Part shown: positions 152 through 41,850 of the stretch, piece after piece
Numbering within the stretch: the stretch's first letter is position 1
Layout: the number at the start of each line of letters is the position of its first letter
Source: Bacteroidales bacterium
GTDB lineage: Bacteria > Bacteroidota > Bacteroidia > Bacteroidales > UBA932
Length of the DNA stretch: 64,000 bases
Reading direction: 5' to 3'
Assembly (NCBI GenBank): GCA_017443025.1
Contig: JAFSPG010000004.1
Location: forward strand, 1,030-65,029
Position numbers and translations under genes: made by a program
Notes under the pieces: model-generated
Told to the model about the DNA's origin: nothing
Seen by the model: the letters and a program-made list of their open reading frames with translations, nothing else
The model's database searches: none

Positions 152-383
152 TTTTTTTAAGCACTTTTTTGCAAATATTTTAAAATAAAATTTAATCGAC
201 TGATTTATAACGATTTAAAATTATATAAACTGATATTTGAAAGTATTTCTCAATTTTCTATGTCGCTTAAAACGTTATGTATTGATATGCAAACTACACT
301 AAATCGTTTTTTATGCCAAAAATACTTACAAAATGAAAGTAAAGGACACTTCCCCACCCGCTTATAAGATATATCAGTTAATA

Positions 384-426: not shown

Positions 427-497
427 GGTGCGATGGCCGAGCGGTTAGGCACAGGTCTGCAAAACCTGCTACAGCGGTTCGATTCCGCTTCGCACCT
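427..497 (+). tRNA. tRNA-Cys (GCA)
   Basis: Acceptor GGTGCGA/TCGCACC, anticodon arm CAGGT-CTGCAAA-ACCTG, T loop GGTTCGATTCC, discriminator T; CCA not encoded. Confidence 0.97.
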
Positions 498-500
498 CTC

Positions 501-538
501 AAGATGCCCCGAACTTATTCCAGGGGCATTTTTTGTTT
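501..538 (+). terminator. Intrinsic terminator after tRNA-Cys
   Basis: ATGCCCC (504-510) / GGGGCAT (523-529) stem followed by a T run. Confidence 0.7.
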
Positions 539-542
539 TGAT

Positions 543-1046
543 ATGAAAAGCGCATCAAGAACAGTAAGAGCAGCCAGGTATGAGGACATCCCCCGCATAC
601 TTGAAATACTTGATGCCGCCCGTATCAGGATGTGCCAGTCAGGCAATCCCACACAATGGCAGCCGGGCTACCCAACGGCAGAAATGGTTTCCAGGGATAT
701 CGACCGAAATGCAGGCTACATAATAGAAGACGACGGAGTCGAAGTAGCCTACTTCGCATGCTTACCATCCCCCGACCCGACATATGACATCATATATGAA
801 GGAAACTGGCTGGATGACACACTTCCCTACTGCGTGATACACAGAATCGGAGGCATCCCTTCGGCAAGTGGAATCTTTGAATCCATTATGGACTATTGTT
901 TCTCGAGATGCTCCAACATCCGCATCGACACCCACCGCGACAATCACGTGATGCAACACCTCATTCAAAAACGCGGCTTCACATATTGCGGAATAATCCA
1001 CCTTGCGAATGGCGACGAACGACTCGCCTATCAAAAGCTTGATTAA
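543..1046 (+). CDS. GNAT family N-acetyltransferase (167 aa)
   Basis: GNPTQW..GYP, CVIHRI and IRIDTHRDNHVMQ..GF.YCG motifs; start moved to ATG 543 because the longer ORF runs through the tRNA. Confidence 0.8.
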   Translation: MKSASRTVRAARYEDIPRILEILDAARIRMCQSGNPTQWQPGYPTAEMVSRDIDRNAGYIIEDDGVEVAYFACLPSPDPTYDIIYEGNWLDDTLPYCVIHRIGGIPSASGIFESIMDYCFSRCSNIRIDTHRDNHVMQHLIQKRGFTYCGIIHLANGDERLAYQKLD

Positions 1047-22027: not shown

Positions 22028-23698
22028 ATGATACAAGTCTTCTGCAAAAACACAGGTACCTACAGGAAGTATCCCGAGGGTACCTCCCTTCTGCAAATGC
22101 TCCCCGATTTTGAGTTCAGCCAGCCCCATCCCATTGTATCGGCCAAGGTCAACAATGTCTCGCAAGGCCTGAAGTTCAAAGTCTACAAAAGCAAGGACAT
22201 TGAATTCGTAAGCATAGGAGAAGCCAGCGGAATGCGCGTTTACTGCCGTTCGCTGTGCTTTTTGCTTTATAAGGCCTCCTGCGACGTCTTCCCCGGCAGC
22301 AAGCTCTACATAGAGTATCCCATCTCGAACGGTTATTTCTGCCATCTACACAAGGAAGACGACTCCCCTCTCACAAAGGACGATATCGCCCTTCTCGAAA
22401 AGAAGATGAGGGAAATCGTCGAGGCCGACGTCCCCTTCCACCGCTATGACGTACAGACCGAAAAGGTCCTCAAGATTTTCCGCGACGAAGGTTACGAAGA
22501 CAAAGTCAAGCTCCTCGAGACCAACGAGGAAGTCTATATGGACTACTACAAGCTGGAGGATACCATCGACTATTATTACGGCCGTCTCGTTCCCTCCACC
22601 GGATATCTGAAAATCTGGGGCATAGAGCCTTTCCGCGACGGCATCCTTCTGCGTCTCCCCGACAAGAATGACCCCTCACGCCTCGCTCCCGAGAACGACC
22701 AGCCCAAGACCTTCGAAATGTTCAACGAGCATCTGCGCTGGAACATCATCATGGGACTCAATACCGTCGGAGACGTGAACCAGGCCCTGAAGGCCGGCCA
22801 CGGCAGCGAGCTGATTCAGGTAGCAGAGGCTCTTCAGGAAAAGAAAATCATCCAGATTGCCGAAGAAATCAACAAGCGCTACCGCAGCGACAACCCTGTG
22901 CGCCTCGTCCTTATTACTGGCCCGTCGAGCAGCGGCAAGACCACCTTCTGCAAGAAACTGAGCGTGCAGCTCAAGGCCTGCGGACTGAAGCCCATCTCGG
23001 TATCGACCGACGATTATTTCGTAAACCGCGTCGACACCCCCAAGTTCCCCGACGGCAGCTACGACTTCGATAATTTCGATACCGTCGACCACGACATGAT
23101 GGAGGCCGACCTCATTAAGGTCCTCTCCGGCGAGGAAGTATCCGTACCCGAATACAACTTCGTTACCGGTATGCGAGAGTTCAACGGAAAGACTTTGAAG
23201 ATGGAGCGCGGCAGCATCCTCCTCGTTGAAGGTATCCACGCCTTGAATCCCGCCCTGACCTCGCATATCGACGAGAGCAAGAAATACCGTATCTTCATCA
23301 ATACCCTTACGAATACATCCCTCGACTACCACAACTGGATTCCCACGAGCGACAACCGCCTGCTCAGGCGAATCATCAGGGATTACAACAAGGGTGCATA
23401 TACGCCCCGCGAGTCGATCAGCCAGTGGCCCAAGGTCTGCGAGGCGGAGGACAAGTGGATTTATCCTTTCCAGGAGATGGCGGACGCGATGTTCAACTCG
23501 GCTTACCTGCTGGAATTCGCAGTGCTTCGCAATCACGCCGAGCAGATTCTGGCCTGCGTGCCGAAGAACTGCGCGGAATACAGCGAGGCGCACCGTCTGC
23601 TGAAGTTCATCCACTACTTCACTCCTGTTTCCGACAAGGAAATCCCGCCCACCTCAATGCTCCGCGAATTCGTCGGCGGTTCAAGCTTTCATTACTAA
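22028..23698 (+). CDS. Nucleoside/uridine kinase with N-terminal TGS and ThrRS-like domains
   Basis: SAKVNN (TGS), DYYYGRLVPSTG, GPSSSGKTT, LLVEGIHALNP, DNRLLRRIIRD; start at ATG 22028. Confidence 0.85.
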   Translation: MIQVFCKNTGTYRKYPEGTSLLQMLPDFEFSQPHPIVSAKVNNVSQGLKFKVYKSKDIEFVSIGEASGMRVYCRSLCFLLYKASCDVFPGSKLYIEYPISNGYFCHLHKEDDSPLTKDDIALLEKKMREIVEADVPFHRYDVQTEKVLKIFRDEGYEDKVKLLETNEEVYMDYYKLEDTIDYYYGRLVPSTGYLKIWGIEPFRDGILLRLPDKNDPSRLAPENDQPKTFEMFNEHLRWNIIMGLNTVGDVNQALKAGHGSELIQVAEALQEKKIIQIAEEINKRYRSDNPVRLVLITGPSSSGKTTFCKKLSVQLKACGLKPISVSTDDYFVNRVDTPKFPDGSYDFDNFDTVDHDMMEADLIKVLSGEEVSVPEYNFVTGMREFNGKTLKMERGSILLVEGIHALNPALTSHIDESKKYRIFINTLTNTSLDYHNWIPTSDNRLLRRIIRDYNKGAYTPRESISQWPKVCEAEDKWIYPFQEMADAMFNSAYLLEFAVLRNHAEQILACVPKNCAEYSEAHRLLKFIHYFTPVSDKEIPPTSMLREFVGGSSFHY

Positions 23699-23713
23699 CC
23701 GTGGCCGGTTAGT
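23694..23713 (+). terminator. Hairpin overlapping the kinase stop codon (possible terminator)
   Basis: Perfect 8-bp stem ACTAACCG-TGGC-CGGTTAGT; T run 10 nt downstream. Confidence 0.45.
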
Positions 23714-23730
23714 ACCGAAAACTTTTTAAT

Positions 23731-23790
23731 ACCGGGAGAAGGGTCTCCCAGACCCACTCTGTCGGGCTTCGCCCTCCGGCGCACAGAATA
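23731..23790. repeat. GC-rich structured intergenic module (second type; single copy in window)
   Basis: GGGTCT-CCC-AGACCC hairpin, and a TCTGT/ACAGA stem enclosing GGGC-TTC-GCCC. Confidence 0.45.
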
Positions 23791-23810
23791 TGTTTTTTAC
23801 CGGATGGAAA

Positions 23811-24013
23811 AATAATAAGTTGGTCTCTTTTAAGACTGTGGTCGCCCGTGACCGCATGAACCGACGCATGAGTGAGTAAAGAGTGAACTTGTTTACTCTT
23901 TCGAGCGAAAAGGAGGAAAAGGTCAAAGACCTTAACATTCGGGAGGGGCCCAACTTTAGTTGGGAGGGATAGGACCGAAGGTCCGTAGTCTATAAAAGAG
24001 ACCAGCTATTATT
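23811..24013 (+). repeat. Structured dispersed element, copy 1 (long form, REP/REPIN/MITE-like)
   Basis: Core ACTGTGGTCGCCCGTGACCGCATGAA (23835-23860) ... GGGAGGGGCCC..TGGGAGGGATAGGACCGAAGGTCCGTAGT (23941-23989) recurs at 41755-41827; enclosed by its own inverted repeat. Confidence 0.85.
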
Positions 24014-24039
24014 TGTATTTATTTGATTTATAGAAACAT

Positions 24040-41717: not shown

Positions 41718-41730
41718 AACATTATATTAT

Positions 41731-41850
41731 TTATAAATTGGTACTGAAATAAAAACTGTGGTCGCCCATGACCGCATGAATGGGAGGGGCCCACGAAGTG
41801 GGAGGGATAGGCCCGAAGGGCCGTAGTTTTTATTCAGTATCAATTTATAA
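41731..41850 (+). repeat. Structured dispersed element, copy 2 (short form)
   Basis: Core 41755-41827 matches copy 1; enclosed by a ~27-bp inverted repeat TTATAAATTGGTACTGAAATAAAAACT / AGTTTTTATTCAGTATCAATTTATAA. Confidence 0.85.

Follow-up and report, generated by a model that had tools for sequence, protein, structure and literature searches.

The stretch analysed here (the window) comprises 64,000 nucleotides of a Bacteroidales genome of 1.66 Mb, 52% GC and 93% completeness, where it occupies positions 1030-65029 of contig C3. It contains two copies of a palindromic element, copy 1 at 23810-24015 and copy 2 at 41722-41844, which are 2 of 17 in this genome. The element is probably a non-autonomous, palindromic mobile or recombinogenic DNA element, the core of which would fold on the G-rich strand and be read in trans or exchanged by recombination; our confidence in any particular enzyme as its mobiliser is much lower. 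What appears to be new is a conserved centre with free ends, and a covarying 5-bp pseudoknot in an element apparently acting as DNA. An exact search of the genome with GGGAGGGGCCCA returned at least 14 copies and the covariance model R1 found 17, which fall into four subfamilies with a common core and unrelated arms. The first-pass annotation had proposed, from the two window copies, a dispersed, non-coding and uncatalogued family of the repetitive extragenic palindrome (REP) or miniature inverted-repeat transposable element (MITE) kind. With 17 copies in the genome, rather than two only, and with no match when compared with Rfam, this proposal was upheld.

The core shared by the two window copies was present as described, both stretches reading exactly so, and its 24-nt 5' word (TGTGGTC-GCCCRT-GACCGCA-TGAA) occurred twice in the window versus 0.00 times expected from 100 shuffles. 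The middle hairpin (P3) and the last hairpin (P4) of both copies were likewise confirmed as sequence, including YGGGAGGGG, AGGGATA and GTAGT. In copy 1, the layout of copy 2 is interrupted between TGAA and CGGG by a 79-nt insert, which contains an 11-bp hairpin of its own, a AAGGAGGAA stretch and a small GGTC-AAA-GACC hairpin. A long outer stem (P1), absent from the first-pass annotation, encloses each copy. In copy 2 this stem joins about 41731-41756 with 41825-41850, and a 5-bp direct repeat, TTATA (41722-41726 and 41845-41849), marks the bounds of the element. Arms homologous to those of copy 1 were found in C7:41601 and C14:57025 and differ from them by compensated changes. The parts of the two copies are as follows.

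23698-24037, no strand: 340-bp spacer holding copy 1, missing in strains with 95-99% identical flanks
23810-23836, + strand: copy 1, 5' arm of P1 (AATAATAAGTTGGTCTCTTTTAAGACT), pairing with 23987-24015 in the minimum-energy fold
23837-23860, + strand: copy 1, hairpin P2 (TGTGGTC/GACCGCA) with loop GCCCGT as the 5' strand of the pseudoknot, then L3 (TGAA)
23861-23939, + strand: copy 1, optional 79-nt insert in L3; the strain in run X3 lacks exactly these nucleotides
23940-23989, + strand: copy 1, 3' half of the core, with CGGG (3' strand of the pseudoknot), AGGGG, P3 (CCCAAC-TTTA-GTTGGG), AGGGATA, P4 (GGACC-GAA-GGTCC) and GTAGT
23987-24015, + strand: copy 1, 3' arm of P1 (AGTCTATAAAAGAGACCAGCTATTATT), from the minimum-energy fold
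41722-41844, + strand: copy 2, whole element of 123 bp, delimited by the empty-site allele of DNA run X8 (join 41721->41845)
41757-41827, + strand: copy 2, core, scoring 65.8 bits with covariance model R1
41757-41776, + strand: copy 2, P2 with loop GCCCAT
41777-41779, + strand: copy 2, L3
41780-41784, + strand: copy 2, ATGGG
41785-41789, + strand: copy 2, AGGGG
41790-41802, + strand: copy 2, P3 (CCCAC-GAA-GTGGG)
41803-41809, + strand: copy 2, AGGGATA
41810-41822, + strand: copy 2, P4 (GGCCC-GAA-GGGCC)
41823-41827, + strand: copy 2, GTAGT

As a family, the element is a unit of 120-210 bp in which a conserved core of ~75 nt lies between two long inverted arms. The P1 arms have a median length of ~30 bp and are ~90% complementary; their sequences are homologous within a subfamily and unrelated between subfamilies, the only constraint on them being that they remain complementary. 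In every copy, 20-35 bp of pairing close a four-way junction. The core begins with P2, the CCCNN of its loop being paired with NNGGG further downstream, and continues with AGGGG, P3, AGGGR and P4 to a 3' junction word that varies by subfamily (GTAGT, GTACC, GAAGG or GACGG). This is the geometry of a classical H-type pseudoknot, with 1 nt crossing the 5-bp helix, 0 nt between the helices and 3-6 nt (L3) crossing P2. The suggestion that CCCG pairs with CGGG in one window copy and CCCA with TGGG in the other proved to be right, and the pairing extends to 5 bp (CCCNN:NNGGG). When the copies were parsed directly, these 5 bp were complementary in 96 of 97, in six pair states. Pairs were also counted in an alignment of 83 distinct cores, for a structure that was specified by hand.

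P2: 85% of cells paired, changes on both sides at 7 of 7 pairs
P3: 95.5% of cells paired, changes on both sides at 5 of 8 pairs
Pseudoknot: 100% of cells paired
Pseudoknot, position 20/35: U-A 35, G-C 31, A-U 15 and C-G 2
Pseudoknot, position 21/34: C-G 47, U-A 35 and U-G 1

The covariation score of the whole structure was 0.416, compared with 0.133 for shuffled columns (0 of 500 shuffles reached the observed value) and at most 0.096 when the partners were slid. Covariation, on which the earlier proposal depended, was found in P2, the pseudoknot and P3. Since relatedness can inflate such counts, independent events were sought. Two pairs of near-identical copies, L080/L088 and L019/L020, each show a double compensatory change within the pseudoknot. 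A tree of 96 copies, inferred from the element outside the pseudoknot, gave up to 29 changes of pseudoknot state, which is an upper bound because the tree is weak. Orthologous copies inside a gene (L002/L076) showed many differences in the arms, nearly all of them compensated, and an unchanged core.

Several parts of the core tolerate variation. L3 takes optional modules, namely the 79 nt of copy 1, a different 62-nt insert at C5:23100 and inserts of ~30 nt in other genomes. Two variant cores, at C15:171616-171681 (- strand) and C16:40689-40754 (+ strand), keep P2 and the pseudoknot and have GGGAGGGGCCC...GGGAGGGAT replaced by GGGGGGACCACC[GCCGTMAGGC]AAGGTGGTGGGAT. As these cores lack the purine runs, AGGGG and AGGGR are not obligatory; the search pattern demanded the G runs, so their invariance is to some extent circular. 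A composite copy was also observed at C11:20319-20480, with a subfamily-B 5' arm outside subfamily-C arms, a D-type P2 and an enlarged P3, which suggests nesting or recombination between subfamilies.

That the element changes as DNA was seen directly in other strains. Alleles were read from the contigs of public runs aligned to both window copies, with flanks of 95-99% identity at copy 1 and of ~99% identity in general.

Copy 1, DNA run X1: no join, matches the window
Copy 1, DNA run X3: join 23860->23940, without exactly the 79-nt insert
Copy 1, DNA run X7 and RNA runs X27 and X30: join 23849->24000, a 150-bp deletion (23850-23999) across GACC microhomology
Copy 1, run X25: join 23814->24021, 206 bp (23815-24020) gone, which is the whole element
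Copy 1, DNA run X13 and RNA run X29: join 23697->24038, the whole 340-bp spacer gone
Copy 2, DNA run X8: join 41721->41845 with 5 shared letters, 123 bp missing, TTATA repeat

In the allele without the spacer, the kinase-family gene and the ABC-F gene abut (TAAT ATG). The strains in runs X7 and X13, unlike the window, carry the 79-nt insert in copy 2, at 41780|41781, and copies C7:41638 and C11:15001 have it at this core position as well. Across the family (61 genomes) it was restricted to this species and was found inside cores only. Gene conversion between copies, or else site-specific insertion, best accounts for its exact gain or loss at two loci. Thus, within the time that separates strains, the element appears, disappears and is rearranged at the DNA level.

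RNA processing was rejected as the cause of the joint 23849->24000, because the same joint is present in a DNA run and hence represents a strain deletion. Two origins of the arms were also considered and rejected. Copying of the arms from the target does not agree with the empty-site allele of copy 2, which holds neither arm. Insertion of the core into pre-existing hairpins does not agree with this genome, where arms occur only together with cores and none without a core was found. A second small repeat, ACCGGGAGAAGGGTCTCCCAGACCCACTCTGTCGGGC, lies in the copy-1 spacer at 23730-23764 and recurs at C11:18025-18059 and C5:44461-44511; it showed raised depth and other contexts in all metagenome runs.

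The relation of the element to genes was examined over all loci. Of 108 copies, 35 lie within long open reading frames (ORFs), 19 in sense and 16 in antisense, and the co-directional intergenic copies are divided 13 to 13 by orientation. In the window, copy 1 was confirmed to be sense and copy 2 antisense to the flanking genes. From these two, a simple cis-regulatory RNA had been argued against, and the lack of orientation bias relative to genes across all loci bears this out. Convergent intergenic sites were occupied more often than divergent ones (20 vs 4), a preference that may be read as that of tolerated selfish DNA. Three copies of this genome lie in frame in housekeeping genes.

C7:716-1597: dapF, element in frame, sense
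C12:22082-23383: xseA, element in frame, sense
C14:108765-110210: murF-type ligase gene, element in frame, antisense

The reading frames of DapF, XseA and the Mur ligase stay open through the element, with Pfam domains on both sides. In DapF, both arms and the core together form an insert of ~41 residues, NPMREAPGPVAAHGHMNGRGPTSGWEGWSEAEGNGSLMHGV, which is missing from 11 aligned orthologues and located in a loop of naturally variable length. This copy was present in 4 of 4 strains examined, no empty allele being found among them. In many cores, several frames on both strands contain no stop codon, and no gene split by a copy was found, either as a broken gene or with translational bypass. The element persists in genes when it lands in frame in a surface loop, in either orientation. 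The DapF proteins of sister species (L122, L124 and L125) carry other, unrelated insertions and low-complexity inserts at further loops, that of L124 containing a Cys/Glu-rich tandem repeat of ~100 aa (EPCTCEKSECECGCQDG...). The proteins of this genus seem to be unusually tolerant of insertions.

Which molecule folds was evaluated from strand asymmetry and loop composition. The non-Watson-Crick pairs of the two window copies had been taken as G-T on the plus strand; this holds as a tendency and fails as a rule. On the G-rich strand, G·T exceeded A·C by 73:36 in the arms and by 64:19 in the core (137:55 in total, p = 3e-9), the arms being counted by direct arm-to-arm alignment because minimum-energy folds mislead through register shifts. 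The ratio was not flipped in copies transcribed from the other strand (29:12 vs 19:14, not significantly different), so one strand of the element folds whatever the direction of the host gene. Triloops accounted for 55 of 100 P3 loops and 57 of 79 P4 loops. C-GNA-G triloops numbered 34 in P3 and 39 in P4, compared with 2 and 0 GNRA or UNCG tetraloops. The d(C-GNA-G) mini-hairpins are exceptionally stable in DNA, and natural structured RNAs favour GNRA and UNCG. Together, the orientation, the loops, the G·T excess and the DNA-level polymorphism favour folding as single-stranded DNA (ssDNA) over folding as RNA.

A pattern scan across prokaryotes, with one genome per species, gave at least 120 loci. 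Among the matches listed, ~95 loci came from metagenome-assembled genomes of rumen, gut and faecal Bacteroidales, including Candidatus Cryptobacteroides and the RUG and RGIG series. With the covariance model, the element was detected in 19 of 61 genomes of the window's family at 1-22 copies each, and copy number was uneven within genera (17, 6 and 0; 19 and 0; 22 and 2). The exact pattern was present in just 3 of 301 genomes sampled across the order Bacteroidales. The element belongs largely to a single family of uncultured Bacteroidales from rumen and gut, with over 100 copies in metagenome-assembled genomes besides that of the window. Copies at contig ends in genome G039 and at least 12 near-identical copies in genome G328 indicate recent amplification in some genomes. 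Plasmid and phage collections gave no match, and full-text literature queried by sequence word and by keywords yielded no description of the element.

For a mobile or recombinogenic DNA element, these results could be connected as follows. The arms would let the core extrude as a hairpin or cruciform on ssDNA, for example during replication, and the folded G-rich strand might then be recognised by a trans-acting enzyme for copying, insertion or copy-to-copy exchange. Selection may account for part of the arm complementarity, and template-switch correction, a process known for 'perfecting' quasipalindromes, for another part. Gene conversion between copies may keep the core uniform within a genome and let the 79-nt insert jump.

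A number of observations weigh against this interpretation. Inverted repeats can gain 'compensatory' changes through template switching without selection, and since this mimics compensation, covariation of the arms alone proves little. Target duplications are inconsistent, with 5 bp (TTATA) at the empty site of copy 2, 2 bp at the deletion allele of copy 1 and none evident at the other copies of this genome, so that transposition itself is not demonstrated. Part of the polymorphism amounts to simple deletion at microhomology. The strand asymmetry is a tendency of 2.5:1, not a rule, and replication-strand bias by GC skew was not significant (42:58 in 100 copies, p = 0.09). The core of copy 2 also folds strongly favourably as RNA, with z-scores of -4.6 for RNA, -3.9 for the DNA + strand and -3.2 for the DNA - strand.

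The search for a partner enzyme points in the same direction. A link to HUH/Y1 enzymes (RAYT, IS200/IS605) had been envisaged and was not supported: PF01797 matches were as frequent with the element as without it (8 of 10 element-bearing vs 7 of 10 element-free genomes). Two element-bearing genomes have no PF01797, one element-free genome has 7, and no Y1/RAYT (PF01797) match adjoins a copy. ORF clustering around 94 loci revealed no recurrent neighbour and no family in more than 5 loci, the few families shared between loci being orthologous sites. Genes between close copy pairs were mutually unrelated (a RelB/PIN pair, a lipoprotein and a membrane protein). No transposase adjoins any copy, and no autonomous insertion sequence (IS) with the same ends was found in a search that did not cover every IS family. 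Among the candidates, no mobilising enzyme was found. The RelB/DinJ-like and PIN-domain pair, recognised by sequence motifs only, is located between two direct copies 1 kb apart at L201 (G330:C25:6300-8200, ORFs 553-900 and 881-1381).

A further difficulty comes from G328 (loci L163-L190), where the core with its own 20-bp arms sits at the centre of an ordinary MITE with terminal inverted repeats of 21-23 bp (GATTATCCGCAAAATTACCCC) and AT-rich target duplications of ~8 bp. The GATTATCCGCAAAATTACCCC ends gave 91 matches in G328, around many unrelated inner parts of 56 to 400 bp, and 0 in the window's genome. The 171-bp subfamily, of which L183 and L185 are deletion derivatives, carries a decayed pseudoknot core. 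As the G runs of the core have decayed in this carrier, the core was a passenger not needed for that amplification. It seems that a copy nested itself in the carrier and that the carrier was then amplified.

The same search pattern led beyond the Bacteroidales, with ~20 alphaproteobacterial loci and 14 IMG/VR contigs among the matches listed. The alphaproteobacterial layout is CCCTCGCCCC-TCCG-GGGGAGAGGG-AGGGG-CCC[hairpin]GGG-AGGGAGAGGGG, and the central module GGGAGGGGCCC-hairpin-GGGAGGG lies within a homopurine mirror repeat (also at L013, L017, L028 and L071-L073). Compared with Rfam, these loci gave only an unrelated suhB/mmgR small RNA (sRNA). Caulobacter vibrioides DSM 9893 has 27 module copies, often as inverted doublets ~110 bp apart. 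At its locus L195 (G370:C18:56800-58500), motifs at ~336-366 (+ strand) and 793-823 (- strand) flank ORF 444-785 (+ strand), a gene for a 113-aa DUF559 endonuclease, in an arrangement that resembles REP-RAYT or NTS-ssnA. DUF559 was rejected as the partner of the Bacteroidales element, being absent from the window's genome and from 9 of 10 element-bearing relatives. In the viral or proviral IMG/VR contigs L154 (a provirus by classification), L155, L152, L158 and L161, the alphaproteobacterial form of the motif occurs 2-4 times per 10-15 kb, mostly a short way upstream of gene starts that are read divergently.

A tentative and rather unlikely possibility is that the core is a purpose-built tertiary fold of ssDNA, in which an H-type pseudoknot is set on C-GNA-G-capped hairpins and the symmetric purine runs GGGAGGGG and GGGAGGG could add triples or switch to a quadruplex. 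It would then be the recognition or catalytic module of a hairpin-dependent mobility or copy-exchange system cutting the arms at variable positions defined by structure rather than at conserved ends, and the alphaproteobacterial DUF559-linked doublets would represent a second branch with a different enzyme.

It is less probable still that the structure, as a pseudoknot or as a G-quadruplex or purine triplex of GGGAGGGG and GGGAGGG, serves the host in recombination, replication pausing or repair, nucleoid organisation or the control of DNA uptake. Roles of this kind have been proposed for REP/BIME and NTS/Ssn repeats. In favour, the core is conserved between genera whose arms and flanking genes have drifted, and P3 has a purine run placed symmetrically on each side. 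The inverted doublets of the alphaproteobacterial GGGAGGGGCCC-hairpin-GGGAGGG module, one pair of which flanks the DUF559 gene, would agree with such a role, as would the 20 to 4 excess of convergent over divergent sites. However, the element is missing from most genomes of the family, even of the same genus, which excludes a core host function, and its presence varies between strains. The G-run invariance is in part circular, with the cores at C15:171616, at C16:40689 and in G328 lacking the runs, and the distribution of DUF559 given above does not follow that of the element.

Equally improbable, in our assessment, is inert palindromic debris, that is, an old MITE family whose transposase is gone and whose structure is kept only by template switching within copies and gene conversion between copies. 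The lack of a partner enzyme, the common deletion derivatives at microhomology, the exact swapping of inserts between loci and a roughly neutral rate of arm evolution all fit debris. On the other hand, one core sequence persists in many genera although their arms have become saturated with change, whereas gene conversion operates only inside a genome. Although another helix and 11-13 nt separate the pseudoknot partners, they pair in all but one of the parsed copies, and the identical and contig-end copies point to recent amplification in some genomes.

The candidate that survives least well is a structured RNA, whether self-cleaving ribozyme, protein-binding sRNA or cis-acting mRNA element, insulated by its closing stem and spread on a mobile hairpin. 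The four-way junction, the covarying H-type pseudoknot and the invariant purine junction strands are typical of functional RNAs, the RNA z-score is low, expansions of variable length occur at the fixed sites L3 and P3, a G·T excess fits one folding strand, and contigs of RNA runs cover the copy-1 locus. Nevertheless, in Rfam 15, which covers twister, pistol, hatchet, HDV-like and hammerhead ribozymes and the Bacteroidales motifs, only two tRNAs of the whole window reached the gathering score; copy 1 had no match at E up to 10, and copy 2 gave only chance-level matches to its outer stem (mir-3578, 20 bits with a cutoff of 78, and TwoAYGGAY, 17 bits with a cutoff of 43). With random orientation, half of the copies would be transcribed as the C-rich complement, the G·T excess is independent of the direction of transcription, and the triloops are C-GNA-G rather than GNRA or UNCG. 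The one 'RNA' joint is a strain deletion, and a copy inside a gene lacks the space for its own promoter. The other possibility raised at first, a structured RNA with its own transcription, is disfavoured by the orientation and loop statistics.

Read as a mobile or recombinogenic DNA element, the family has consequences beyond this genome. To our knowledge, its pseudoknot is among the best supported in an element that apparently acts as DNA. In-frame palindromic repeats in essential genes, long a curiosity of Rickettsia, are common in a dominant rumen lineage, where their dynamics can be observed between strains. A protein that reads the fold, if there is one, would add a new ssDNA enzyme with site and structure specificity to those now sought as tools, such as Ssn, HUH and bridge-type systems. 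If there is none, the family would offer a natural test of the extent to which template switching and gene conversion by themselves imitate 'covariation', which bears on all covariation-based searches for RNA motifs in repeat-rich metagenomes. For annotation, the elements break assemblies, add ~40 residues to proteins and split Pfam domains.

The element was compared with several known systems. Pistol, twister and HDV-like ribozymes share with it a hairpin loop that pairs downstream, a long closing stem and occurrence as a repeat; they differ in that the element has no Rfam match at E up to 10 and that its orientation and loop statistics speak against RNA. The order of its helices does not appear to fit the HDV-like or pistol topologies. 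Integron attC sites have conserved outer R''/R' boxes, a variable central part and adjacent gene cassettes, and the element shows the opposite layout, with variable arms, a conserved centre and no gene-cassette context. REP/REPIN-RAYT and IS200/IS605-derived repeats are, like the element, dispersed hairpins thought to act as ssDNA. However, REPs measure 20-40 nt and the element is much longer and more complex; it is not a palindrome of that size and lacks a constant 5' tetranucleotide of the GTAG type, with GTAGT in the window copies specific to one subfamily, and no RAYT gene is flanked by copies.

NTS/SRM repeats are cut by the GIY-YIG ssDNA nuclease Ssn, the SRMs being 20-50 nt long with the tag HGTCWY (Chenal et al. 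2025, PMC11893778). They resemble the element as multi-copy hairpins, which are recognised only as ssDNA, with a strand-specific flanking tag that gives orientation. By inspection the core has no HGTCWY tag, and whereas SRMs flank their own nuclease gene, no gene flanked by copies was found here, GIY-YIG genes not having been searched for.

The Correia/CREE, ERIC/IRU, bcr1 and BOX/RUP families are likewise small, non-coding, multi-copy units with inverted arms, AT-rich sites and deletion derivatives, and ERIC also takes optional internal inserts at fixed positions. As in MITEs, the unit is small, non-coding, multi-copy and bounded by terminal inverted repeats. MITE families keep their ends, which are the binding sites of the transposase, and vary inside; the window element reverses this, with the centre kept and the ends free, and it differs further in having no consistent target duplication and no related autonomous IS that could be found. 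The Rickettsia palindromic elements (RPE-1 and relatives), reportedly described by Ogata et al. in 2000, are also hairpin repeats of 100-200 bp in many copies with no transposase of their own, and they too occur both between genes and in frame in housekeeping genes, adding a peptide loop to an otherwise intact protein. They belong to another phylum, and the likeness is functional only, with no relation in sequence expected. The element described here is set apart from them by its conserved centre, its covarying pseudoknot, its arms unrelated between subfamilies and its gain and loss at the level of strains.

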